62,764 bases of DNA. Source: a virus (Duplodnaviria; Caudoviricetes). Shown here in pieces: positions 25,532 to 62,764 of the stretch. Location of the stretch: positions 1 to 62,764 of the IMG/VR virus record IMGVR_UViG_3300020171_000027; one strand, given 5' to 3'. Under the pieces are notes generated by a model. It made no database searches. It was not told the DNA's origin and saw nothing but the letters and a program-made list of their open reading frames with translations. The translations under genes were made by a program, and so were the position numbers. Position 1 is the stretch's first letter. Each line of letters begins with the position of its first letter.

Positions 25532-25718
25532 GATGGATAAAATTAAAAAAGACATTATGATTCGTGGCTTATGGAATTCAGTGTGGCAAAAATTCAAGGT
25601 CATCTGTAAAGAGAACGATCCGCCAACAGCAAACTATGGCGTCAAACGCTTAATCCGTAACGCTGTTTTACAGTATGAGGCAGAGCATGGGGAGGTAATA
25701 TGGAACTCAAAAAAATAA
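25532..25718 (+). CDS. Putative ribbon-helix-helix regulator
   Basis: DIMIRGLWNSVWQKFKVIC...GVKRLIRNAV pattern. Start MDKIKK is approximate. Confidence 0.5.
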
Positions 25719-25891
25719 CCGGGGAAGTTTTACCGGATGTTGGTAATCCCTGTAAACTATGTGGCAAAAACGAGGCCGCATGGTTTGCTACAATCAAGAT
25801 TAACTCCTCCGGCACTATCACGTTGCCGCTATGTGTTTTCTGCGTGGACGTGCCGGAAGCTGAAATCATTGAAAGGATATTATCATGCTAA
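25700..25891 (+). CDS. Small Zn-finger-like protein
   Basis: CKLC...CVFC, with a GGAGG RBS. Confidence 0.5.
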   Translation: MELKKITGEVLPDVGNPCKLCGKNEAAWFATIKINSSGTITLPLCVFCVDVPEAEIIERILSC

Positions 25892-26114
25892 ATGAAATAT
25901 ATAAGGAAATCTCTGAGTCGCTTATATTTTTCTTCATTGTGTTCTGTCTGCTCTGTTTATGCCATGTTGCTAATAAGCAAGCTATCCACGATCAAGCAGT
26001 TTATGACGCAATGTTTATTTGCTATGATGTGCCTGTACCGGATGGATTTTCAAAAGCCATGATAAAAACCCCTTGACATTGAGTCTCAGTTCAGCATGAA
26101 TAAAGAATAATAAA

Positions 26115-33895: not shown

Positions 33896-34548
33896 TACTT
33901 TAATTCCCCTTGTTTTCTTGCTTTTTCGGCTTCTTTTATGGTATTAAAATATCCCAAACAAATCTGCTTATATTTTACTGTAATAGATGCCATGTATTTT
34001 TCAATTCGCTTGTGCCAACTAACACCATTAATTCCGGTTTTATTATTTTTCAATAATCTACGGTTTCTTACCTGATCTGTCATGGTTGCCCAAATACAAT
34101 TTTCTTTAAAATATCCTAAATTATTATCCTTGCGTTCAACTGTTAATTTTTTTGGGCATTTACCCATATCTTTTAAAAAGTTTTCAAAAATCAACCACCG
34201 GTCACAAACCTTAATGCCACGTCCTCCATACCGATAATAATTTTTATCTTTTATGTTATTACACCGCATAACCATGTGCATCCATGAATTATATGTACGT
34301 GTTTTACTCATACCATGTGTTTTATTATTTTCCCCCTGTTGCTTGGCTACTTCTTTCTGTAAACATCCACATGACATAGAGTTCCCACTACTTCGCCTTA
34401 AACTAATCCCTTTTACAACTCTAACTGTTCCACATTCGCAAAGACATTTCCAATATGTAGCTTTTTGTTTTCCACTCCCAGCATATTCGAGAACTGTCCA
34501 CCTACCAAACTTCTTACCCAACATCTCAATCTTAGCCACAATAATCAC
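33886..34548 (-). mobile_element. Free-standing HNH-AP2 homing endonuclease
   Basis: CLCECG...SCGC, YGGRGIKVCDRW, ERKDNNLGY...NC, and AP2 domain NKTGINGVSW...LGYF. Confidence 0.85.
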
Positions 34549-34745
34549 CCTAAATCCACAAAAAGCGCATCAACGTGGAGGGATAGCTCCACCAAACAGC
34601 ATTGCGCTATTTGGAGTTGATACGCTTTTTCTAATTTTAAGTTTGATTGTTTTGAAACTCTATCCAGTTCCATAAGATTTACCTCAATTCCAACATTGCA
34701 TTTTTCAATAGTCTTGTCAAGCTTTTTTCTGGTCATAATGGTATT

Positions 34746-38979: not shown

Positions 38980-39210
38980 TCATGATTTCACCCTTATTTT
39001 CAGTAATGCCTGTGCTGGTATGTCGTAGGCTTTCATATATTTTAAGATTATTGCAGGGCTGATTGATCTTTGGTTATGAATATGCTTATATAAAGTGCTT
39101 GGAGTAACCTTGCTTTTTTTTGCCATTTGGGTGAGCGTAAGATTATTTTTCTTTTTGTATCGTGCTAAAATATTCAATTTATAATCTCCTTTCAAACGTA
39201 AGTTTATCAA
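38980..39210 (-). CDS. Cro/XRE-family HTH regulator
   Basis: LTLTQMAKKSKVTPSTLYKHIHNQRSIS, first gene of the leftward arm at a divergent promoter pair. Confidence 0.8.
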   Translation of the reverse strand: MINLRLKGDYKLNILARYKKKNNLTLTQMAKKSKVTPSTLYKHIHNQRSISPAIILKYMKAYDIPAQALLKIRVKS

Positions 39211-39300
39211 GGGTTAGCATTTTATTAAGGGCGTGTCAAGAAAAAAAAGTGTTGCCAACTAAAAATAATTGTTGACACGTATTTTGATATGTGCAATGTA
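39210..39300. promoter_or_regulatory. Divergent promoter pair
   Basis: TTGACACG on both strands (39232-39239 minus, 39272-39279 plus) around an A-rich spacer. The -10 boxes are weak. Confidence 0.6.
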
Positions 39301-39809
39301 AGAAGAAACTAAACAATGGAGGTGAATATGGAAACAACAGGATTAAATTTTTTAGAAGCGCATACGGCATTGATCGAAAGTAAGTGCGAGAAGATTGAAG
39401 CCCAAAGGAATCCTGGAATTTATTACTCTTGCAAAGATTTTCTCGGCGAATGGAAATTAATAGGAGTTAAGCAAAAGATTGAGGATGTTGGATGGCTGGA
39501 AGGAGACTGTCCCAATAGGCAAGTGTGCAGGGCAAGACTTACTCAAAAAGCCCAAAATGAAGATGACTTTGGAGTGGGTTGAAAAATGAAATCAATAGCA
39601 ACCATAATATTTTTAACAGCACTAATGACCTCCGTGGTGCTGATTGTAATTAATATTTTATGTCCATGACTGTCGGGGCTGACTGCAAAAAATAGGGAAG
39701 GTTATGTAGTTTGGCAAGGGTCGCAGGAGGCCCCGATTAACAATATCAGGGCAAATTGGCATGTTAATCACTGGTTATAAAGATTTACTAATTAAAGGAG
39801 AATTTTAAA

Positions 39810-40019
39810 ATGTCTAATACATCAAGTTCATCGTCAGGTATAGGAGTATGCGGCTTGTTGGGTGTTGTATTTATTACGCTTAAACTTACAGGATATATTA
39901 CATGGTCTTGGTGGTTGGTTACTTTACCTTTTTGGGGAGGTATAGTTTTTGTATTATTTATTTTAGCCTGTCTCTTTGGTGGCGCATGTATTAGCTATTT
40001 TTGCCGTAAATCTTTATAA
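39810..40019 (+). CDS. Small two-TM phage membrane protein (cassette A1)
   Basis: SSSSGIG..GLLGVVFITLKLTGYITWSWWLVTLPFW, a motif common in phage genomes. RBS AAGGAG. Confidence 0.8.
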   Translation: MSNTSSSSSGIGVCGLLGVVFITLKLTGYITWSWWLVTLPFWGGIVFVLFILACLFGGACISYFCRKSL

Positions 40020-40103
40020 TACAGCACTGGAGACCGACCAGAGAAGGCTATGCGATTTGGCGTAATCATCACGTGGCGGCTCAGTTATATCGTTAGGTGA
40101 CTT

Positions 40104-40367
40104 ATGAGAAAATTAATAACTCTTGTTTCAAGACTAAATGTGTTACTCAGTAGTGAGTATGCTATTATTCGCAGTGATCATAAAGTAATGAGTTCAGAAG
40201 AATATAAAACACTTAGAAAACTTTGCAATGATATTAATTCAGAACTCGAACGTCACCTAACCCAGCAGTGCAGCGGACGGGAAATAGCGGAGGCATTTTG
40301 CTTAGATTGTGGCTTTGATTATGGTTCATCAAATTGTCAGGGCTGTGAACATTATTCCCGCCGCTGA
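40104..40367 (+). CDS. Hypothetical protein (cassette A2) reading through its attC-like site
   Basis: The C-terminal CLDC...CQGC is encoded in the attC loop, and the stop lies in the L' box. Confidence 0.55.
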   Translation: MRKLITLVSRLNVLLSSEYAIIRSDHKVMSSEEYKTLRKLCNDINSELERHLTQQCSGREIAEAFCLDCGFDYGSSNCQGCEHYSRR

Positions 40368-40592
40368 CTTACATCGTTATCTGCTTTGATGGGGGTGTAA
40401 GAAATAGCTGTAAATATATATTGTCTTTCCGGAAAGATTCTATATAGACAGCAAACCGTGACGAAAAAACATAGAGACGTTCTATGCAGATTTCAAATTG
40501 GGTTTCTTACATCTCACATGAGCGCAGATAACACACCACTTGAGCTAATGGAAGGGTATGTGATAAATGTCAAAGATTATTGGAGAGTTAGA

Positions 40593-40889
40593 ATGAAAAG
40601 AATATCAGACGAAAAATTAAACGAGTTGATTGATAACGAAGGCGAGTTATCATCAGGGGCTATTTCTATAATGGGTGTTTTACGATTAGCTCTTGACCTG
40701 CGAGATGCCCGTGCTACAAAAGAGATACCAGACCAGCTATATATATGCCCTGTTTGTAAAGATAGAATATTAAAACCAGGATGCTGTCATAATCCATATT
40801 GTCATGATCGGCAATATATCTATCCGCCAAAATACGGTATTTGCCATAAATGCGGTGAGGTTACAATATTTTGTAAGTGTGAGAAATGA
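40593..40889 (+). CDS. Cys-rich hypothetical protein
   Basis: GGAGAG RBS before the ATG at 40593. Motifs CPVC, CHNPYC and CHKC. Confidence 0.6.
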   Translation: MKRISDEKLNELIDNEGELSSGAISIMGVLRLALDLRDARATKEIPDQLYICPVCKDRILKPGCCHNPYCHDRQYIYPPKYGICHKCGEVTIFCKCEK

Positions 40890-41347
40890 AAGTCTATTTA
40901 CTTAAAACAATATCAGGCTTAATTCCTTCGGACGCTGAATCTGACGAATGGTTTCATAAGCAAAAAACAGGCTCTGTTATATCGGCTGAAGTTAAGCAAG
41001 TTCGGAACTATGAGTTCCATAAAAAACTGTTTGCATTGTTTAACCTCTCCTTCGGATATTGGGAACCTGGTGAGATTGACTCAAAATATAAGAATCCTGA
41101 GAAGAGTTTTGAACGGTTCAGGAAGGATTTAATAATTCTTGCAGGCTACTATAAAACAGAAATTAGATTAGATGGTTCGGTAAGGGTTGAAGCTGAATCA
41201 ATATCGTTTGCTTCAATGGATGCCAATACGTTTGAAAAACTCTATCAGAATGTTTTAACTGTAATAATGAAACGAATACCAGTGCTTGATAAAATGACTA
41301 AAGAAGAGATTGACGATTTGGTTAATAAATTTCTGGCCTTCGCATAA
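40886..41347 (+). CDS. DUF1367 family protein
   Basis: RNYEFHKKLFALF...FERFRKDLIILAGYY...SISFASMD. Confidence 0.85.
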   Translation: MKVYLLKTISGLIPSDAESDEWFHKQKTGSVISAEVKQVRNYEFHKKLFALFNLSFGYWEPGEIDSKYKNPEKSFERFRKDLIILAGYYKTEIRLDGSVRVEAESISFASMDANTFEKLYQNVLTVIMKRIPVLDKMTKEEIDDLVNKFLAFA

Positions 41348-46289: not shown

Positions 46290-46631
46290 TATTTACAATA
46301 AATGCAAGAGGTTATGATTATGAACGATGATTATAAATATGAAACAGAGCGTTATGATGATATCAATTTAGATGTCGATGACTACACAACCAGAATAGTC
46401 AAATCATTCTATCAAATTGTAGGATTAGTAGATAATATAAATGTATATAAGCGAAGAGCTGAAGAATATCCTGCTGTTATTTCAAAAAAACACGCTAACG
46501 GAGTACAATCGTTTTTGGAGAATGTAGGAGATAACCTTCAGGATTATGAATCTTTATTTAACGAAATGGACGAATAATATCAGGGCAAATTGGCATGTTA
46601 ATTCATGGTTATACAACAAAAGGAGGTTACA

Positions 46632-47009
46632 ATGGATTTAACTGCAAAAAATGTGACAGACATCTTTATGGACTGCTTATTTAGAGATGGTGAAGATACA
46701 TCAAACCCTGTAATAGCCGAAGGAATTACGTCAAAGTTCGGTTTTCATAAGGAGCGACTAAAATCGCACATAGATGATATTGCAAACATGCTTTCTCAAT
46801 TACCGAAAGAGTTTCAAAAAGAGTCCGGTGGAGGAATGTCATTTTTAAACGCCTGTAATAATTTCAATGGTGAACAATGGACTGGACTACATGAAGTAAT
46901 GGAACAACTTTTTGCAGTTGGATTGGCATCTGGAAAGGCTCAGTGTTTAATGCCACGTAACATGTGGGCTGTCTTGCCTGGCGGAATGCCGTATTACGTT
47001 GTTGTATAA
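46632..47009 (+). CDS. Conserved phage hypothetical protein (cassette B1)
   Basis: AGGAGG RBS. Motifs GGGMSFLNAC, GEQWTG and LPGGMPYY. The stop TAA lies in the inverse core site. Confidence 0.8.
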   Translation: MDLTAKNVTDIFMDCLFRDGEDTSNPVIAEGITSKFGFHKERLKSHIDDIANMLSQLPKEFQKESGGGMSFLNACNNFNGEQWTGLHEVMEQLFAVGLASGKAQCLMPRNMWAVLPGGMPYYVVV

Positions 47010-47122
47010 CACACAGATGCAGCGGATTGAGGATTTATAACACACCACTGGAACCAACCAAAGAAGGCCGTGCCGTTTAGCATAGGCATCACTTGCCGCA
47101 ACTGATTACGATGTTATACTAC

Positions 47123-47416
47123 ATGAAATATAGAACACAGTACATAAAGAAAAACTGGAAATTGATAATACATTTATTGCTTGGGACATATTATTTCGGA
47201 GTAAACAATCAATGGTGGGTAGATTTTCCTTCCATGTTTGGAAAACCTTGGTATTTAAAAATTAATCCTTTCCAGATAAGGAGAAATTATAAAGGTATGG
47301 AATTCAGAGCAGTGGCCTGTTATTTTGTTGCAAAACCTTGGCTACTATTTCCTAAACATCCTAAGTATAACCAGCCGCTTGACTCTGACGGCAAAAAGCC
47401 GCCGCAGGTCAGCTAA
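47123..47416 (+). CDS. Hypothetical protein (cassette B2) reading through its attC-like site
   Basis: The C-terminus NQPLDSDGKKPPQVS is the translated attC palindrome. Confidence 0.55.
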   Translation: MKYRTQYIKKNWKLIIHLLLGTYYFGVNNQWWVDFPSMFGKPWYLKINPFQIRRNYKGMEFRAVACYFVAKPWLLFPKHPKYNQPLDSDGKKPPQVS

Positions 47417-47434
47417 ATCGTTAGGAGGCTTTAG

Positions 47435-48947: not shown

Positions 48948-49604
48948 TTATTTCCAATAAAGTTCTTCGGCTTCTTTTCTCGCTATTGCCGCCTCTTCTA
49001 ATGTGTTATAAAGACCTATATAGTATCTTTTATAATTTACTTTAATCTGTACACAATATTTTTTGTTTTTCTTAGCAAAATGGACTCCGCTTACACCAGT
49101 TTTGTTTTTTTTGCTTAATCTTTGATTGCGTCTTTGCGCTGTTCGAGTATCCCAGCAACAATTCTCTTTGAAATATCCCAGTTCGTTATTTTTTCTCTCA
49201 ATGGTCAAACATTCTTCTGATTTTTCTCCCATATCTTCAAGAAAATTCTCAAACTTTAACCAGCGATCACATATAGTAATTCCACGGCCACCATAATGAT
49301 AAAAATTTTTATCTTTTGGATTAGTACATCTTTGTTTTATGTGTCCCCACGCCTCATACGTAGCTGTTTTATGCATTCCGTGTTTTGTAATACTTTCTGT
49401 CCAAAGACAACCACAACTTTTAGTATTACCCCTAAAAAGATTTTTCTTTCCTACAATATGGGTATTCCCACAATCACAGATACATTCAAAATGTAACCTG
49501 CCTTTTATCTTACCAACATCTTTAATTACAGTAAGACGCCCGAACCTATCTCCAGTTTTTATGTTGACTTTTCTTCTGGGATTATTTATAGATACTTTAG
49601 TCAT
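48948..49604 (-). mobile_element. Free-standing HNH-AP2 homing endonuclease in the lysis block
   Basis: CICDCG...KSCGC, YGGRGITICDRW and an AP2 tail. AAGGAGG RBS before MTKV. Confidence 0.85.
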
Positions 49605-49736
49605 GGCAAATTCCTCCTTAATAGGATTTGTTATTGATGAGAAGCAGGCGAAGAACCGATCTTTGTCTGCTTCGTTATTTGTAATAAAGGTTTGTATAGA
49701 AGTCAACATATTATTTCACAAACTTTCTCGACCATT

Positions 49737-54068: not shown

Positions 54069-57000
54069 TTACTCCTTTTCTAAATATCGTTTTATTTTTT
54101 CAGTTCTTTGCTTTTCTAACCGTTGAATCATTTTACTTCTAATTTCTGTCTCTTCCATACTTTTTAATTTATTGATTCTTTTTCTATATATATTTAATCC
54201 ACCTTGAAACTTATTTAATCGTCTTAATTCAGCAAGTTCTTTTCTATACTCACGGCGAAACTCTGCTTTATCCTTGCTTGTTTCAAGAGCGTCATTGATT
54301 TCATTTAATTTAGCTTTTTTCTTTCTTAATTTATTATCCCAAAATTCTTCATCACTTCCAGTAAACTGGCTGATGGCAACAGGTGTAAACTGTTTCTTTA
54401 GCTTTTTAATTCCTTTGTATTCGTCAGTTGTTTTATATTGTTCTCCTTGGAGAATTAAGGTTAGATTAATACCCAATTTTTCAACAAACGAAGCTGTCCT
54501 GCCAGCCGTTAAAAACATACTTGGTTGTAATGCCTGAATTAAAGTAGTGGCCTCTCTGTATGCTTTGTTTATTATTTTACCAACAAAACTTTCATCGTCC
54601 TCATCCCTTACCATGCCAAATGTCAGCATAACAAAAGCTGTAATCTCAACAAGCCGATATAGTTCTACCATAGATTTTTTAAATTCTGCTTCACTTGGTT
54701 TTTGGAAAGTTAGTTTTTTGCCCAAATTACCAAGATTTTGTATTGTCGTTCTTAAAATTGGAATAGCCCATCTCTTATATTGAGTGTAAGCCCTTCCTTC
54801 TGGAGTTGCACCAATAACAGACTTCATCCCTCCAACCATTCTATACCGACCAAGTTCTGTTCTTAACGCAGCTAATTTTTCAGGAGATATTTCTCCTGCT
54901 TTAAATTCTTCTTTAGACAGAGATCCTAATAAAAAGGTTTTATTAGACCTTACAGAAGCATCCTTAAATAAAACAAAAATTCCCTCCATCAACCTATCGC
55001 CAACCTCTTTCGCTGGTTCTGCCAATTCTTCCCAAGGATTTTTTCCTATAAGATTGCGATATTTTTCTATAATTGATTTGCCTTGTTTTGTATTTTGTCT
55101 TAATTTACCAACAACAAATTTTCTTTTCCCAAGTAGCTGATATGTAGTTATTTGCTCTCCAACTTCAGTAGCAACACTTACAGGAATGTTTAACCCCAAA
55201 TCTCTTAAAGATGTAAACATTTTAATCGCTCTTAATGCCGCATCTATTTTTCCGTTTTGCTTTGCAATTAAGGTTATATGACGACCTTTTTGAGTATTGA
55301 TCCATTCTTTTACAAACTTGATTAAATTTCCATGCAATAATAATCCTTTTTTAGTCATACCTTTGGGCGTGAGTGCATGGGCATAAATGTCAATTAAAGG
55401 AGTTATTTCATCTAATGCCTGCTTCTTTTTAAATGTACGCATGTATGTTAAAAAGGCTTTTACAACATTTTCAGTTGGCTTCAGTTTCCCGGTTCTGTGC
55501 ATAGCAAATTTAAAAAACTTATCCATTGCTAAAATTTGACCAGTTTCTTTATCTAATATATTAAAAGCTTGTTCATCGAGCTTATAGGACTCAAACTGTT
55601 CTTTAACGGCTTTGATTATTCCATCTTCTTTGGTAGCTTCTAATATTCCCCTCCGGACATGAGTAAAATAGTTCTCCTTTCCCATATTCATTGCTTCTAT
55701 TTGCAATAAATAATCCCTGGCATCAGAGAAATGTCTGGTCATGTATTCAGCCATTGCCATTTCTGCTTCAGATAACCCAACCTCTGCTTTTTCATTAGCA
55801 GGAGCTTCCATAAACTTTCTAATATTTTTATGTTGAGGAACAAAAAAACCAACGCCCTTTAACTTTTTAGCTAAAGCGAAAATGTCTTTCTCTATTTTTA
55901 AATATTCGGCTTCTGAAACAAGCATTCTTTTTGCTGTTTCTTCAACCATCATTTTATAAAAGATATTCTTTTCAGCCAATCCGGTTTCGTATCTAAATCT
56001 ATCAAATTCCGATACTTTAATACTTTGTAGTTCTTTTACAGGAACTCCGAGCTTTTCAGACAATCGCTCTCTGGCTTCTCTCCAAGTCTTAATTCCTTTT
56101 AATTCTGTTCTATCAACTACTTCTAATTTTCTGACCGAAAGAAACTCATCACCCTTTTGGAATGGTTCTAAGGCTTCATCTAACTTTCTAATCTGCCCAA
56201 CGGTCATATTTTTTAGCGTTGGGAGCTTCATAGCCTTGCGTAAGTTTTCGATATTTAATTCTTTTTCTTGAATTTGCGACATTAATTCGTTCATGGCCTG
56301 GCGTCTTACTTCAACTTTTTCAGCTCTTAATCTTATGCCATCAATATATTGTTTAAATTCATAATTGCTCATAAAACGAATATCTTTACCAGAAATCTGT
56401 CTTAATTCTCTATCAGTTAGATTAAAATGATCTCTGGCTGCCCTGATAAACTCTCTGCGTCTTTTGAGAATTTCCTTTTCGGTTTTTATCTTTTCTAATT
56501 TAGTTTCAGCACTTTTTAGCTTGGCTTCATATCGGTTAAGAACTTTTATGTAATCTACACCATACTCATCTGCTTTTACCCTGCTGAATATCGGAGGCGT
56601 TACATCATCTATAGCGTCAACATTGTCCCTTGTAGCAAAAGCATATAAAACTCCATCCAGATATTCACGAAGCTCGATTATATCTTTAAAATATTTTGAG
56701 GAGCCAAAACCTTCTTTTGACATCTTATCAGATACACCTTTTAGCCAAGATATAACTGTTTTCATAAACCTCTTAAATACACCGGCATCATCTCTCGCAA
56801 AATATTTTAAGAAATCAGGGTCAGCTAAGGCATCGCCTGTAAAATCAGCAAGGAGTTCTGTTTCTATTTGATCACGTGGTAAAGAACTTTCTCCGGGTAA
56901 CATGGTTTTGTCAAAGGCTTCCCTAAATTTTTCAAACTCCACAAAATGCAATCTCGCCTTACTGATAAACGTATTATAGAGCGTTGAATTATCACTTTTG

Positions 57001-60000
57001 ATTTTGTGTAATAATTCATGGCCTGCAAGCTGGACGAATCCTTTGATAGCATTTGGGTCAATGAAAAGATTTCCTTTGTAAGTCTGTCCACCAATTCTTC
57101 TAAATTTTTCTTTTGTTGGGGTAACGGTAATAATTTTTGTTTTGAAAACGGATTCAAAAGCTCTGGCAACGCTTCTGGTAGCATCTGGGACATCTTTTTC
57201 GATGACATAGGCATTCTCCCATTCCTTCCCTAATTGTTTAGCAAGTTGAGTATTTAGGTCTCGTACTAATTTGTCTTGTTCAATGGCAGGCTTGGTAGCG
57301 TACTTAGGTTGTTCTTTTTGTGCTTTGTTCCAGATATCGATTATTTTTGATTCTTTTAATATAGCCTCTTCATTTAAAACAATCATTCCATCTGATGTAT
57401 AAATGCCATCTATCCCTTTATCTTCTATAGCTTCCCAAAAAATATCAAATAATTCTGGACTATCAAAAACTCCCGCTGAATCTACAATATCTTCAGAATC
57501 TAATTCTTCAGATAATTTTTGGGCTGTTTCTTCAATTTCTTCGCTTTGCCTATATGAATCTAATATCTCTTCATTTTCAGGATTTAATAATTGTTCTCTA
57601 AAAGCATCTTTTACTGAACTAATGTTTACAAAGTTAAATTTCCCTATAATATTCGGTACAAATAGATTTTTGCCATACTTGGAAATACTTTCCCTATCTT
57701 CTGCGAACATAGCATAATTAACATCTCTGAATGGACTTTCTGTGTTTGTTCTTCTAAAATATCCAAAACTATCAACAAACTCGTCAGCCGTCTTATACTT
57801 TCGTGCTTCTTGCTCGATAGTTTCTTTCAGCTCAATACTAAAACTCGTTCCCTCACCATCAGTAACAATCCAGTCTTCACGAGGTATGCCCTGAGCTTCG
57901 TAAGGCATGGTTTCTCTGCGTTCTTCTGCGGTTAGTTTTGCACGGGCGGACGTGTCTCTGGCTTCTATTTCACCGGCAAGGTTCATATAGGCTTCTGTTG
58001 CATTTTTAGGAAGTTTATTTTGACGCTGAATTTCTTCCATTGCAGAAACAACAGTAGCATAACCTGGATATTTTTCTTTAAGTCTGTTTTCTTCTACTTT
58101 TAATTGTGCATTTGTATAATCCTTATTATCTGCCAACCATTTATAGATTTCTTGCTCAACTGCTATCCCTTCTTTTGTTTTGTCGTAGTTATCAATGGCT
58201 TCTCTATAGCTTTCTATTAAAGCAGTATCTTTAAAGGCAGTTTTGAATGCCATTTCAGATGGTGATGAGCCACGAGCAAAGCCGGAGATTTCTTGGATGG
58301 CATGTTGGATTTCGTGGAGCAAGGTTTCTTTAAGCTCTTTCCCTTTTGTCATAAAACCACGAGGAAAAACTATCGAATTTGTTTCAGGCTCATATTCCCC
58401 TTTTGAATCTTCAATATAATCACTTCTGATTTTTATTTTACGTAATTCTGGATATGCTTTAAATAAAACCTTATGGTCTATCAAATCATCAAGTGTCTTA
58501 ATCTCTTTTGAGTTAATTTTGATATACGCAGGAGTTCTTTCAGTTTCTTTTATTTCTGCACCACTATCATCAATCTCCCACTTCCAAGTCTCTTCTTTCT
58601 CAACGCCTTTCAGCCATCCAGTTTCTTTCCATACCTCTTTCTCGCTCTTACCTTCCTTGAGCATTTCCTGAGCTCTAACAAGTGCGCCAGTAGGTGCGCC
58701 TATGGCTTTTTTGCCTGCCATTGCGTATCTTATATCGGGATTAGTTGGGTCAAACTCTGTGTTGAATATGGATTTTATTTGGGTAGGTTCAAAGGCTACA
58801 TAGGAAGTTCCACCAAATTCTGTATCTTTCACAATAATCCCATCATACCCTTGTTTTTTTATTTTTTCTATGTTTTTCCCAAGGCTCCAAAAATTTCCTT
58901 TCCATTTTTTAGGGTTTTGTAATGATAAATAAACAGGCATCCCTATATCTGTTGCTGTTTGTTCTGATATGTCTTGATCTGTAAACCAAAAACCAGCCTT
59001 AGCCATTTTTAAACTATTTATATCATCTGTATTTATTTCGGTTGTAAACCCAAGCATTTCTTTGTCAAATACTGTAAAATCTGTATCTGTCCAGTGTATA
59101 ACCATTAATGGCTCGCCCTTTTTATTAACAACCTTACTATCACCAAACCATTTTACAAACTTAGGATTATCTCGAATATTAACAACAGCCTTCTTTAAAG
59201 AGAAACTCACATCCTGAGCAAACTGATTAATGCCTGAAACCTCACCACCCATTTCTCTCTGAAAGATTGCACCAGATTCAAATTGTCTTGTGATGCCTCT
59301 CGAAGTAGTAGTAAACAAATTAACAAACGAGTCTATGAAATCAGCAATCTTATCAAGTATTGTTCTTATCGTGCCTTTGTATTTTGCTCGGTTCCTTACT
59401 TCTGTTTCCATGAAATACGCTTGGTCTTCTTCACCGCCTATGTTTTTTTCGTTCTGTGTCTTAAACTTTCCTTGCCTTACAAGTTGCCTTATCTTGAATT
59501 TAAGCACTCTTAACTCTTTTGGTGTAGCAAGACCTAACTTTCTAATAATATGCCAACCTTCGTGAGCTACCGTCCATTTATCGCCTATTCCTTTGACGAT
59601 CTCAATAGTATCATCCTCGAACTTGCCTGCAATTAACTCACCGTCAGCTCTCATCCGGCCACGTGCTGTCTCAAAGGCCAGCTTGTTTTCGCTTATGTGG
59701 GTTACACTTTTGACTTGGAAGCCGTAACCGGATTTGAGTTTTACCCAGATATTACCGTCTTTGGATAAACCGGATGGAGCTTTGAATATGTCTCGTACTT
59801 GTGATAGGTTTATTTCTGAGTCGGATATTCGTTGTTTGGTGGCATAGAAAGTGTCTTCCATTGGAGTAGTTGAGATAATTTTATCTTTATTAATAATCGC
59901 AACAGTAGTCCCTCTTCCCTCTGGTTCAACAAAACGACCGCCATCGTATCCAGCTTTTTTCAGGTTTTTTATAAAGGCAGGATCTTCAAAAGCTCCCTGT

Positions 60001-62764
60001 ATTTCTCCTTCACCTTCGTCAATCATTTTCCCCCATTCTTTATCTATGCTTTCTACTAATTCTATTGCTTCAACTATATCTTTAGAACGGGCTAATCCTG
60101 TAAAGTCTGCTATTTTAACATCTTCACTTATACGACTTTCTAATATCCTTTCACCGCCCCTAAGTCTTCCGAAATATCCAGCGTCTTCTGCTTTTTCTGA
60201 AAAGAATATGGCTTTAGCTTTAGAAGGTTTCTCCCCAAAAATACCTTGAGCATATCTTTCGCCAAAATCTAATTCTTCAAAATCTCTGGCAGTTGCGTGA
60301 TACAATACTTTTGGGATTTGTTTGGTAGCATACTTAGGCAGTTCTCCGGCTGGTTTTTCGGCAGGCTTGGCTTTCTTTGTTTCTTCAAGTTCATTGAGAT
60401 GTTTTAAAGCCATAGTATAATCATGGTTAGCATCACTCAAGGCATTTTCTAATTCACGACCTGAACGTTTAATTCCTGTTTCTTCATTTATTTGTCCAAG
60501 AGTAAGTGTTTTTGCTTTATAGCTATCTACATAATCTTGAAGTTCAGCAACAGTTTCCATGCGATATTCAACCATAGACCTTGCATGTTCTATGTCTGTG
60601 GCTTCTATTTCTTTATATGCTTCTTCAATATAGTCCTTACCTGCAACTTTCTGAATTGCATCTTTAACAGGCTTAGATATGTTTTGAGAAAGTAACCAGT
60701 TTTGGAATGGGTTTAATTTAATATTGCCGGTTATATTTCTTGCTTCTGTATCAGCAACTTCTTTGAAAAGTCTGTCTATGCCAGCAGGTTTTAGATTTTC
60801 AGGTGCAACACCTAATATTTTCTCAAATTGTTTTACTGGAAGTGCTGCACCTGCTGATTTTTTAGGCTTAAACTTTGGACTTATAATTGAAGAAGGAAAT
60901 GCGCTTTCAACACGTTTTTGGAAATCAAATAATTCGCTACCTTTAATCTCAAATGTTCCATCATTGGGAACTTCAAAAGTATAAACAGTTTTAACGTCAG
61001 TTAAAGGATTAATACCAGCCTTTATAAATTTTCTGGCTTCTTCCATTGTGTTATCAAACTCAGACTCTTTTAATCCACTCTCAATCGCCTTATCAATCTC
61101 AGCTATTAAATATTCTTTCTGTTGTTTTGGGGTTAAGGCGGCTTCTTCTTTTTTAGTAAGGTCAACTGTTACTTCCTTGCCTTCGGGTGTAGTTTCGATT
61201 TCTACTTTTGCCTTAGGTAGTTTGCCAGCTTGAATAGCTTTTTCAACTTGCCTTTGATGAGTTATGGTATATTTTTCTTTCCAATTCATTAAGTATAGAT
61301 TTCTTGCTTCACCTGTAAGTTTTATCTTGCCCTTTAAATCTTCGAGTTTTCCTTGAACATATTCGCTCTCGGTCATTTCGTAGATTTCTTTTGCCTCCGG
61401 TTTTTCGGCAACTTCAACCTTTCGCTTTGCTTCCATACCAGCTATTCTTTTAGCTTGTTCATCCCTCTCCCGTAATCTGCCTCCCTTTTCAAGAGCTACT
61501 ATTTGACTGCTTGGTATTTCGATTGTGTTTTTTGAACCATCGGGTTGAATAACTATAGTATCGGTATCAGATTGTATTTCCTTAACATCACCATAGAATT
61601 CTTGCCCACCTGAGTTTTTAAATTTAACATAATCACCGGCATACAGCTTTGCTTTTTCGGCAACTTCGACTTTTGCTTCTTTTGCTATCGCTGCTTGATA
61701 TTCAGCTTTTTCTTTAGCATTACGTTCACGATATTCCTTAACTTTGTCCTCGGCAGTTTTCTCGCCATATTTGTAAAAACCATAAAGTTCAAATGTAGAG
61801 TCAGGCAAAGACTTCCTTTCTTTATATGCCTTTTCTGAAGCGTCCATGTGTTCTCTTACGGTAGCTTTTCTTTTAGGATCTCTATTCTCTCTTTCAAAAA
61901 CTCCTTTAGATTTGAGATATTCATCTTGTGTCATCTCATAGATTTCTTTGCCTTCGACTTTTGCTTCTTTTGGGGCAGGCTTAGGTATAGGCTCGGTCTC
62001 AATCGTCAATCCTGCGAGGTCTGGCTTCGCCTCTGCTTTCTTTGCGGCTGGTTGTGGCTTTGCTGGCGCTAACTGTCTCCATTTCCCATTTTCAAATATC
62101 TCTATGTCTTGAGGCGGTATTGTGTCACCAAAATACCAAGTCTCTTTTCCTCTTAACCCCATTTGTTGTTCTTTAACATTACCCTTTAATGCACTTTTCT
62201 TTACTCGCAACATCGCTGAACTTAATTCTCCACTTGGCATCTGGCCGCCAAAACCTTCTGTTGCTTTTTCTGATTCTGCAAAGTAAACTCTTTTTAACTC
62301 ATCTGAAACATCGGCTACACCGTGAGGGTATTCTTCAGAATATTCTTTGGAAAGTCCTTCTTTAGTAATTGATTCAATATTCCTTTGAGACGAATTGTGA
62401 TATACATACTTATCATCTTCAGCAACTTCAAGTTTTACGGGTTCTTTCACCGCTTCCGCTTTCTCTGGCGCTGCTTCAGTCTTGACAAATTTATCTCCAA
62501 CTCTTTTATAGCCTTCTGGAATACCAGTAGTGAAACGAGGTTCTCCATTTTCATCAAGCACTTCCGATACGTCAAGAGGCTCTCCACGCTTCACCTTTTG
62601 GCTCACTTCTTGAAACAACTTATTATGTTCTATTGCTATGCTTGTCATTTGTTCGTGTTGCTTCTGTGTCAACCCACCATATTTGATTTTCTCGTATTGT
62701 TTTTTAGTTATTTGTTTAGATGCTAATGCTTCTTCTGGAGTAATATATTCAGGTTCTTTCACCG
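54069..62764 (-). CDS. Giant polyvalent ejection protein, C-terminal part (ART-PolyVal-like, LPD23-like and zincin domains)
   Basis: KWFGDSKVV...PLMVIH...GFWFT...PVYLSLQNP...GYDGII, WKETGW...WKWEIDD...LFKAYPEL, and HExxH motifs HEGWH, HEIQH and HELLH. Confidence 0.88.
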   Translation of the reverse strand, partial: VKEPEYITPEEALASKQITKKQYEKIKYGGLTQKQHEQMTSIAIEHNKLFQEVSQKVKRGEPLDVSEVLDENGEPRFTTGIPEGYKRVGDKFVKTEAAPEKAEAVKEPVKLEVAEDDKYVYHNSSQRNIESITKEGLSKEYSEEYPHGVADVSDELKRVYFAESEKATEGFGGQMPSGELSSAMLRVKKSALKGNVKEQQMGLRGKETWYFGDTIPPQDIEIFENGKWRQLAPAKPQPAAKKAEAKPDLAGLTIETEPIPKPAPKEAKVEGKEIYEMTQDEYLKSKGVFERENRDPKRKATVREHMDASEKAYKERKSLPDSTFELYGFYKYGEKTAEDKVKEYRERNAKEKAEYQAAIAKEAKVEVAEKAKLYAGDYVKFKNSGGQEFYGDVKEIQSDTDTIVIQPDGSKNTIEIPSSQIVALEKGGRLRERDEQAKRIAGMEAKRKVEVAEKPEAKEIYEMTESEYVQGKLEDLKGKIKLTGEARNLYLMNWKEKYTITHQRQVEKAIQAGKLPKAKVEIETTPEGKEVTVDLTKKEEAALTPKQQKEYLIAEIDKAIESGLKESEFDNTMEEARKFIKAGINPLTDVKTVYTFEVPNDGTFEIKGSELFDFQKRVESAFPSSIISPKFKPKKSAGAALPVKQFEKILGVAPENLKPAGIDRLFKEVADTEARNITGNIKLNPFQNWLLSQNISKPVKDAIQKVAGKDYIEEAYKEIEATDIEHARSMVEYRMETVAELQDYVDSYKAKTLTLGQINEETGIKRSGRELENALSDANHDYTMALKHLNELEETKKAKPAEKPAGELPKYATKQIPKVLYHATARDFEELDFGERYAQGIFGEKPSKAKAIFFSEKAEDAGYFGRLRGGERILESRISEDVKIADFTGLARSKDIVEAIELVESIDKEWGKMIDEGEGEIQGAFEDPAFIKNLKKAGYDGGRFVEPEGRGTTVAIINKDKIISTTPMEDTFYATKQRISDSEINLSQVRDIFKAPSGLSKDGNIWVKLKSGYGFQVKSVTHISENKLAFETARGRMRADGELIAGKFEDDTIEIVKGIGDKWTVAHEGWHIIRKLGLATPKELRVLKFKIRQLVRQGKFKTQNEKNIGGEEDQAYFMETEVRNRAKYKGTIRTILDKIADFIDSFVNLFTTTSRGITRQFESGAIFQREMGGEVSGINQFAQDVSFSLKKAVVNIRDNPKFVKWFGDSKVVNKKGEPLMVIHWTDTDFTVFDKEMLGFTTEINTDDINSLKMAKAGFWFTDQDISEQTATDIGMPVYLSLQNPKKWKGNFWSLGKNIEKIKKQGYDGIIVKDTEFGGTSYVAFEPTQIKSIFNTEFDPTNPDIRYAMAGKKAIGAPTGALVRAQEMLKEGKSEKEVWKETGWLKGVEKEETWKWEIDDSGAEIKETERTPAYIKINSKEIKTLDDLIDHKVLFKAYPELRKIKIRSDYIEDSKGEYEPETNSIVFPRGFMTKGKELKETLLHEIQHAIQEISGFARGSSPSEMAFKTAFKDTALIESYREAIDNYDKTKEGIAVEQEIYKWLADNKDYTNAQLKVEENRLKEKYPGYATVVSAMEEIQRQNKLPKNATEAYMNLAGEIEARDTSARAKLTAEERRETMPYEAQGIPREDWIVTDGEGTSFSIELKETIEQEARKYKTADEFVDSFGYFRRTNTESPFRDVNYAMFAEDRESISKYGKNLFVPNIIGKFNFVNISSVKDAFREQLLNPENEEILDSYRQSEEIEETAQKLSEELDSEDIVDSAGVFDSPELFDIFWEAIEDKGIDGIYTSDGMIVLNEEAILKESKIIDIWNKAQKEQPKYATKPAIEQDKLVRDLNTQLAKQLGKEWENAYVIEKDVPDATRSVARAFESVFKTKIITVTPTKEKFRRIGGQTYKGNLFIDPNAIKGFVQLAGHELLHKIKSDNSTLYNTFISKARLHFVEFEKFREAFDKTMLPGESSLPRDQIETELLADFTGDALADPDFLKYFARDDAGVFKRFMKTVISWLKGVSDKMSKEGFGSSKYFKDIIELREYLDGVLYAFATRDNVDAIDDVTPPIFSRVKADEYGVDYIKVLNRYEAKLKSAETKLEKIKTEKEILKRRREFIRAARDHFNLTDRELRQISGKDIRFMSNYEFKQYIDGIRLRAEKVEVRRQAMNELMSQIQEKELNIENLRKAMKLPTLKNMTVGQIRKLDEALEPFQKGDEFLSVRKLEVVDRTELKGIKTWREARERLSEKLGVPVKELQSIKVSEFDRFRYETGLAEKNIFYKMMVEETAKRMLVSEAEYLKIEKDIFALAKKLKGVGFFVPQHKNIRKFMEAPANEKAEVGLSEAEMAMAEYMTRHFSDARDYLLQIEAMNMGKENYFTHVRRGILEATKEDGIIKAVKEQFESYKLDEQAFNILDKETGQILAMDKFFKFAMHRTGKLKPTENVVKAFLTYMRTFKKKQALDEITPLIDIYAHALTPKGMTKKGLLLHGNLIKFVKEWINTQKGRHITLIAKQNGKIDAALRAIKMFTSLRDLGLNIPVSVATEVGEQITTYQLLGKRKFVVGKLRQNTKQGKSIIEKYRNLIGKNPWEELAEPAKEVGDRLMEGIFVLFKDASVRSNKTFLLGSLSKEEFKAGEISPEKLAALRTELGRYRMVGGMKSVIGATPEGRAYTQYKRWAIPILRTTIQNLGNLGKKLTFQKPSEAEFKKSMVELYRLVEITAFVMLTFGMVRDEDDESFVGKIINKAYREATTLIQALQPSMFLTAGRTASFVEKLGINLTLILQGEQYKTTDEYKGIKKLKKQFTPVAISQFTGSDEEFWDNKLRKKKAKLNEINDALETSKDKAEFRREYRKELAELRRLNKFQGGLNIYRKRINKLKSMEETEIRSKMIQRLEKQRTEKIKRYLEKE
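62638..62764. repeat. Terminal direct repeat, right copy (circular assembly overlap)
   Basis: Identical to 1-127. Confidence 0.95.

Follow-up and report, generated by a model that had tools for sequence, protein, structure and literature searches.

Judged by the sequence of its borders, the 157-nt piece at 40376-40532 (+ strand) in the early operon of an uncultured groundwater phage holds up as a unit of an attC-type cassette array in the integron sense, and its sense strand folds as RNA, far better than shuffled controls, into a three-way junction. The reading we prefer, tentatively and at a probability of roughly 0.4, is that this RNA fold is the selected feature of the unit in this genome. 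The window, by which we mean the whole 62,764-bp stretch of DNA analysed, is a complete virus record with direct terminal repeats in which the piece is single-copy; its large terminase is about 51% identical to that of H66/F116-kind Pseudomonas phages, the sequencing runs containing the stretch are groundwater metagenomes, and no RNA runs are on record among them. At its far end (54069-62762, − strand) lies a 2,897-aa ORF with ART-PolyVal and LPD23 domains, a giant polyvalent protein.

The leftward genes of the phage end at an HTH regulator (38980-39210, − strand), and the rightward genes run from about 39316 through a block of small ORFs, NinB, an HNH protein, Erf, a YqaJ-type exonuclease, and SSB. 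The piece lies within this rightward operon, which starts at the divergent HTH-regulator region, in agreement with an earlier sequence-only reading of the same DNA that had placed it in the early transcript. Neither a tyrosine recombinase nor any other integrase family was found among the 109 ORFs searched with Pfam (E <= 1e-4), an integrase was also absent from the 57 ORFs compared with PHROGs, and ARAGORN found no tRNA or tmRNA genes across the window, 40376-40532 included.

Between the small ORFs of the early-right operon lie imperfect hairpins that read, in sense-strand order, ...AAC, 5 nt, L'', a variable part, L', 6 nt, GTT..., with single bulged bases in the L'' arm. We compared this architecture by eye with one real attC, that of aadA1 on plasmid R100, which is laid out R''-5-L''...L'-6-R' and bulges at L'' positions 4 and 11. 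Both the spacers (5 and 6 nt) and the two bulge positions recur at 40253-40382; at 47363-47428 the spacers recur together with three bulges. Under cassette logic the 10-nt word starting at each GTT's G is complementary to R'' in the next unit rather than to R'' in the hairpin it closes. This own-unit complement reaches 8 to 10 of 10 nt in all 10 units examined (5 in the window and 5 in L131, a related metagenome contig), with a mean of 9.2; the 90 non-own combinations average 5.7, and the three that reach 9 include two that involve one word common to the window and L131. Same-hairpin combinations (n=7) match over 3 to 9 nt, and the R100 aadA1 cassette, counted by hand, has an own-unit match of 8/10. 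All 10 R' words start with GTT (GTTA in nine, GTTG in one), and the R'' words end in AAC in nine units and in AAT in one; the strict GTTRRRY consensus fits GTTAGGT alone, most sites reading GTTATNN. The borders of the piece, a G followed by TTATCTGC on one side and GCAGATAAC on the other, obey this logic just as all 10 units do, so that the word cassette, already used in the sequence-only reading, is justified. Because no integrase was found in the phage, we file the array, by the look of its sites, as CALIN-type (attC sites, no integrase) rather than as a complete integron.

Unit 1 of the first array (39775-40092, + strand) holds an ORF at 39810-40019 and attC1 at about 40010-40098, with an own-border match of 9/10. 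Unit 2 (40093-40376, + strand) holds an ORF at 40104-40367 between the border words GTTAGGTGAC and GTCACCTAAC, which match over 10/10; the upstream attC-like site, attC2 (40253-40382, + strand), overlaps the 3' end of this ORF and consists of R'' ACCTAAC, a 5-nt spacer, L'' with two bulged bases, L', a 6-nt spacer, and R' GTTATCT. Unit 3 starts at 40377, and its cargo is the piece described here. A second array of the same kind (46608-47427, + strand) lies after SSB in the same operon; its units (46608-47010 and 47113-47371) have own-border complements of 12 nt and 8 nt, and its short, 60-nt-type attC at 47363-47428 has a near-identical counterpart at L131 1167-1230. A leader module that is conserved, and that contains the stem CGGGGC...GCCCCGATTAA, stands ahead of the first unit of the arrays (window 39655-39790 and 46573-46612; L131 296-432; and 181-262 of a further metagenome contig, L132) and might be an array entry site or a regulatory element.

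The minimum-energy fold of the piece on the + strand, the sense strand for every neighbouring gene, contains 58 pairs, six of them G-U, distributed over three stems: a closing stem, P1, of 28 pairs (5' arm 40376-40405 by the pair table, 3' arm 40502-40532); a long GCTGT...ACAGC hairpin, P2, of 17 pairs (40407-40452); and a second hairpin, P3, whose 13 pairs are broken up by internal loops (40456-40501). The 5' arm of P1 includes the R'-type border word GTTATCTGC at 40376-40384, and the 3' arm ends in the R''-type word GCAGATAAC (40524-40532). A Shine-Dalgarno-like GGGGGTG (40391-40397) in the 5' arm has all its bases paired to 40510-40517, and the first two of the three bases of an ATA codon at 40404-40406 are likewise paired within P1. 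The tip of P2 is a 14-bp perfect palindrome, TCTTTCCGGAAAGA, with inverted TATATA words on either side. The outer stem named in the sequence-only reading (GGTGTAAGAAA at 40394 and TTTCTTACATC at 40503), its long hairpin, and its small CATAGAG/TTCTATG hairpin are all present.

The comparison with shuffled controls that the sequence-only reading had called for came out clearly in favour of the fold: RNA of the + strand folds at -55.1 kcal/mol, compared with -29.2 +/- 3.2 kcal/mol for 200 dinucleotide shuffles, none of which folds as well (z -8.04), the minimum-energy structure accounting for 10% of the ensemble. RNA of the − strand folds at -43.5 kcal/mol (z -5.25), 11.6 kcal/mol weaker than the + strand because 6 of the 58 pairs are G-U, and DNA folding gives z -4.8 (+ strand) and z -3.55 (− strand). 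When the 9-nt end words are removed, z is -4.74 and again 0/200 shuffles are as good; in a 371-nt context, the fold of the piece stays identical.

A scan of the genome in approximately 3,131 windows of 157 nt per strand places the locus in the top four over-folded on the + strand, an excess that is not unique, as other loci on both strands are about as strong. One of these, at 34535-34684 (− strand; scan region 34500-34700), has a three-way-junction-like fold of -54.1 kcal/mol (z -6.72, 0/200 shuffles as good), overlaps a 63-aa ORF (34545-34736) between an HNH gene and a Lin1244_N/replication-initiation-like gene, and could be an origin or another RNA. Two more are over-folded on the + strand, each with z -3.8: 25715-25864 (scan region 25701-25900), within a run of small + strand ORFs, and 49545-49694 (scan region 49541-49720), antisense to an HNH gene. 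An extreme folding energy at L132 1-170 was discarded as spurious, this being a coding tandem repeat of Gly-Tyr-Gly (GYG).

The piece also carries a stop-free frame, P0003 (40401-40547, + strand), of 49 codons without a canonical start. At 147 nt, it is the longest stop-free stretch in the unit, and lies under the 150-bp ORF criterion for gene-less cassettes given in Boucher 2006 (PMC1382264); 2.8% of shuffles are stop-free in that frame. The source record's own gene call here is a 123-aa protein from ATG 40518, without a relative. When 1.84 billion representatives were searched in full by HMMER, P0003 retrieved P0004 (47 aa, 77% identical, E 9e-16) along with two further matches that we rejected as repeat-protein artefacts; a word-based search with P0004 then yielded P0007 (54 aa), which is 83% identical to P0004 and, in a four-way alignment, 83% identical to P0003. 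P0004 comes from one metagenome contig of 5,678 nt (Logan) and P0007 from one of 1,865 nt (JGI/ENA), and each is represented by the predicted protein (gene call) alone. Both start with Met at the position of the window's ATA (40404-40406), two codons past an in-frame TAA and 6 nt past GGGGGTG. Since these relatives were found in protein libraries, only start-bearing copies are visible, an ascertainment bias. The earlier statement that the piece has no credible gene of its own is correct in that no frame inside it opens with ATG, GTG, or TTG ahead of GTG 40458, but does not account for the 49-codon stop-free frame and its Met-starting relatives; and P0004 and P0007 are protein-level matches of the kind that a gene-less cassette lacks under the second Boucher criterion (PMC1382264).

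The codon-usage score of the frame is 1.75, compared with 0.8 +/- 4.3 for stop-free shuffles (40% of which score at least as high); 97.7% of the in-frame windows taken from confident genes score higher (15.2 +/- 6.8), and the scaled scores of small early genes are 4.5-15. AlphaFold renders the peptide as a single helix (pLDDT 70.8, pTM 0.39), uninformative either way. We found no Pfam match or family for the peptide, its two relatives being the sole ones among 1.84 billion representatives, and no usable match in the ESM Atlas. In L131, both border words of unit 3 and their flanks occur at 672 and 831 (GCAGATAAC and its flank recurring at 828-848) with a 62-aa ORF, P0002, in between; this ORF is preceded by a strong ribosome-binding site and reads through the common R'' word, and P0003 is in phase with it. 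Outside the attC-encoded SADNTPL, the protein similarity of P0003 and P0002 is not significant (308/2000 shuffles as good locally and 62/2000 globally), and at the DNA level the cargo aligns with the L131 ORF no better than shuffles locally (480/500 as good) and weakly better globally (11/500).

Whether the relatives keep the fold can be judged in part from their proteins. The differences in P0004 (mapped by script) and P0007 (mapped by hand) imply 11 distinct minimal base changes, of which six fall at unpaired positions, three interconvert G-U and A-U, and two have a partner outside the visible part and break a pair unless that unseen partner also changed. One site with three different residues (C, H, and R) falls in an internal loop of the RNA. 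Pairing is thus spared by 9 of the 11 changes, a proportion without statistical significance (P = 0.14 for 8 or more of P0004's 10 changes) because many transitions are neutral in an A-U-rich fold. When the window is aligned with L131 alone, 37 of the window's 56 pairs are formable with six two-sided changes, and 69/500 shuffles equal this. The sequence-only reading had named, as a finding that would count against a structured RNA, homologues that conserve the frame rather than the pairing: frame and start are indeed kept in P0004 and P0007, themselves an ascertainment-biased pair, but 9 of the 11 substitutions spare the pairing, and the point therefore cuts both ways.

Unit 3's own site, attC3 (40524-40544, + strand), is truncated: it retains only R'', the spacer (ACACC, 5 nt), and 7 nt from the start of L'', and forms no hairpin fold. 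Fused to it, in another frame, are 43 nt left over from the 3' end of a Zn-ribbon gene (40549-40591, + strand), which match L131 2081-2130 and L132 872-920; the Zn-ribbon gene is whole in both contigs. As unit 3's own attC is truncated, the region also shows scars of illegitimate recombination. L132 in addition carries a chimera of the N-terminal part of the next window ORF, a 98-aa Zn-ribbon (40592-40884), with the Zn-ribbon tail whose remnant is 40549-40591.

The assemblies of runs X1, X2, and X4 have loose ends at 40549. The assembly of run X1 breaks at unit borders, and some of its contigs lead from 40095 to 40521 or 40528 by way of other content, which gives indirect support to recombination of the sites by an integron integrase. 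A low-depth X1 contig leads from 40545 through 34 other letters into the 3' half of an attC, and the depth excess over 40384-40457 equals the depth of this contig, which is consistent, as far as contig depth can indicate, with an X1 variant in which the cargo has an intact attC and another neighbour. Contigs from X1 and X4 join 40591 to 40885 (7 letters fit both sides), so that the 98-aa ORF is absent in the X1 and X4 variants. In run X2, a low-depth contig (2.1) joins 40378-40411 to 40552, keeping the first 34 nt and skipping 140 nt, which could reflect either a deletion in a variant or a fault of assembly. The metagenome kin that we anchored on NinB share 88-93% (L128-L131) or 62% (L132 and L133) NinB identity with the phage, and the cargo is absent from all of these close kin.

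We were unable to find further relatives of the piece. NinB-anchored loci from IMG/VR (80), GTDB (28), and metagenomes (80) contain the cargo in no case, and the border words in L131 only; IMG/VR scanned with the flanking ORFs, GenBank phages searched in near and distant modes, PLSDB plasmids searched in distant mode, and phages searched by tblastn with P0007 gave no relative. The two stem words have 6 matches in IMG/VR and 40 in GTDB, all chance by inspection and blast; the hairpin-tip pattern has none in IMG/VR and 16 in GTDB, none extending past the pattern; and the back-translated P0003/P0004 alignment found 0/149 stretches in IMG/VR and 1/71 in GTDB (L253), the latter unrelated in DNA. 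The Rfam comparison that the sequence-only reading had recommended came back empty, with no match at the gathering score over the whole window (Rfam 15; 4,227 families) and, at E <= 10 over 39200-41000, a single noise match outside the piece. We found no intrinsic terminator in the piece, and no antisense partner in the phage genome, the best complement of 13 nt (E 0.11) being no better than chance.

Several other identities were considered and rejected. The piece is not itself an attC in either orientation, as it reads GTT...AAC, the reverse of attC's AAC...GTT; nor is it a MITE or transposon, for it has no target duplication and is single-copy, and its "terminal repeats" are cassette words that follow from attC logic; nor a retron, there being no reverse transcriptase. 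The palindrome is not a repeated operator, its core occurring once in the genome, and ATCGTTA is not a special border motif, its four copies on the + strand being about the chance expectation.

An RNA-level role in the early transcript is, by analogy, the most likely one for the fold. The piece would be transcribed with the operon and would fold into a compact three-way junction whose 28-bp 5'-3' closing stem locks the Shine-Dalgarno-like word and the start position (AUA here, Met in the relatives); given this lock and the AUA, the piece would be a non-translated structured RNA module in this phage. RNA rather than DNA would be the active form, acting within the polycistronic early transcript, and the double-stranded closing stem could act like an RNase III substrate, in processing or stability of the transcript, and could also form a barrier that separates the cistrons on either side of it. 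In favour of the RNA fold as the selected feature, we count i) a fold at z -8 whose interior alone retains z -4.74, and which favours the sense strand; ii) the lack of a start codon, and a codon score no better than that of stop-free shuffles; iii) inferred changes that are mostly unpaired or G-U/A-U; and iv) a cargo that adjoins different attC continuations in the window, P0004, P0007, and the X1 variant, as fits a self-contained module. Against it, we count i) a stop-free frame in phase with the L131 ORF; ii) Met-starting relatives at the ATA, as would fit a small gene whose start was lost in the window; iii) the lack of an Rfam family or a terminator, the about equally strong folding of other loci, and the truncated attC3; and iv) the P of 0.14 for pair sparing, and the 69/500 shuffles that match the L131 pairing. 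We wish to stress that the boldest form of the RNA reading, that of a self-contained folded regulatory or anti-defence RNA that moves between co-occurring phage genomes as an attC cassette, is very unlikely in our estimation.

The main rival, possible though doubtful, is that unit 3 is a start-less allele, whether a pseudogene or very weakly translated, of a small-protein cassette whose 47- to 62-aa peptide is functional in the relatives, the fold being either a by-product or a translational lock, in which 5'-3' pairing covers the ribosome-binding site until coupling or processing opens it. Small proteins are the product of most cassettes and of most phage early segments, and a frame of 49 stop-free codons, seen in 2.8% of shuffles, that is in phase with P0002 between common border words and flanks, and opens with Met in P0004 and P0007 6 nt downstream of GGGGGTG, is what such an allele should leave; but coding sequence in this genome very seldom folds at z -8, codon usage is no better than in stop-free random sequence, the similarity to P0002 beyond SADNTPL is not significant, the relatives were drawn from protein libraries and so are ascertained for their starts, the C/H/R variable site sits in an internal loop of the RNA, the AlphaFold helix is uninformative, and the peptide has no family, no Pfam match, and two relatives in 1.84 billion representatives. 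An absence of function is unlikely: the fold would then be a quasi-palindrome that template switching at the pre-existing 9-bp inverted border words, in replication or recombination, created or lengthened, and that survives only by being recent, or a hairpin or cruciform acting at the DNA level on recombination. The closing stem does begin at border words that are complementary by cassette logic alone, in a region whose scars are the truncation of attC3, the fusion to a gene remnant, and, in variants, an indel affecting the next ORF; DNA folds also beat shuffles (z -4.8 and -3.55), and the phage encodes Erf, an exonuclease, SSB, and NinB. The arms, however, are not recent perfect copies, as they contain bulges, and six G-U pairs give the transcribed strand the better fold; at least two other contigs, with different neighbours, retain the cargo at 77-83% identity at the protein level; and the visible changes avoid stems.

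That the unit is a promoter cassette which drives or modulates neighbouring units, as in gene-less Vibrio superintegron cassettes, strikes us as highly improbable. Most of the 29 gene-less Vibrio cassettes reported by Blanco et al. 2024 (PMC11014356) have sense promoter activity, and P2 contains two TATATA words; but the two weak sigma-70-like matches (9/12) inside the piece are on the − strand with none on the + strand, TTGTCT and TATATA are spaced by 14 nt, and the operon already has a promoter region 1.1 kb upstream. Least probable of all is the trans-acting RNA or single-stranded DNA decoy, for example against host defence, borne as a cassette between phages: a strong fold, an early position, and the mobility of the unit are all that point to it, whereas none of 4,227 Rfam families matches and complementarity within the phage genome is at chance (13 nt at best, E 0.11). 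The ssDNA decoy of the sequence-only reading in particular finds no support, as this phage has no known single-stranded DNA route and no data link the piece to a defence system.

Two kinds of RNA offer precedents for such a fold. The RNase III hairpins of the T7 early sites and the lambda N leader are long imperfect double-stranded RNA stems between early cistrons, where cleavage by RNase III separates cistrons and can free a sequestered ribosome-binding site; the piece would resemble them in its long imperfect stem, and differ in being a three-way junction and cassette-mobile. In fold-back mRNAs of the hok type, the ribosome-binding region is paired with the 3' end of its own short message; the ribosome-binding region of the piece would be locked by the 3' end in a similar manner, but no antisense RNA gene was found here, and the peptide is without a clear membrane helix.

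Gene-less cassettes, an integron-borne sRNA, and phage CALINs are already in print (PMC8876359, PMC1382264, PMC11014356, and PMC9892861). The roles proposed for gene-less integron cassettes are promoters or regulatory RNAs, with a Xanthomonas integron sRNA as an example (PMC8876359), and the working definition in Boucher 2006 (PMC1382264) is no ORF >150 bp and no protein-level match. The piece resembles gene-less integron cassettes in being a short unit bounded by attC logic, without a canonical ORF. They have homologues that are either close or none; the piece is unlike them in lying in a phage genome without an integrase, with its own attC truncated, in having a cargo among the strongest folds of its genome, in holding a 49-codon frame with relatives called as proteins, and in showing no evident sense promoter. 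Phage CALINs, as described by Qi et al. 2023 (PMC9892861), are attC arrays without an integrase whose units are oriented like genes, and five of six tested phage attCs recombined with attI1 under IntI1. In comparison with these, the arrays reported here are two in number and belong to the early operon of a groundwater phage that is uncultured, variants found alongside it have other cargo between identical borders, the sites are known by sequence, and section 3.4 of that paper describes no gene-less structured unit. In the open-access texts searched, we found, among the matches listed, no report of a gene-less or structured unit in a phage array.

Integrase-less cassette arrays in phages were reported only in 2023, and gene-less cassettes have been studied so far in bacterial chromosomal integrons, mostly as promoters. 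The case described here is that of an uncultured phage whose early operon is built, in the stretch analysed, from units bounded by attC-like sites and exchanged among co-occurring variants, and in which the most striking property of one unit is its fold, not an obvious gene. At 157 nt, with a defined structure and a natural ATA versus ATG variant, the unit makes a compact test case. With the peptide as its product, unit 3 would exemplify a cassette gene whose own ends pair and lock it. With the fold as its product, RNA modules belong to the shuffled pool on which phages draw; and were the reading as a mobile RNA true, early operons would be assembled by integron-type recombination from a shared pool of RNA modules as well as protein genes.
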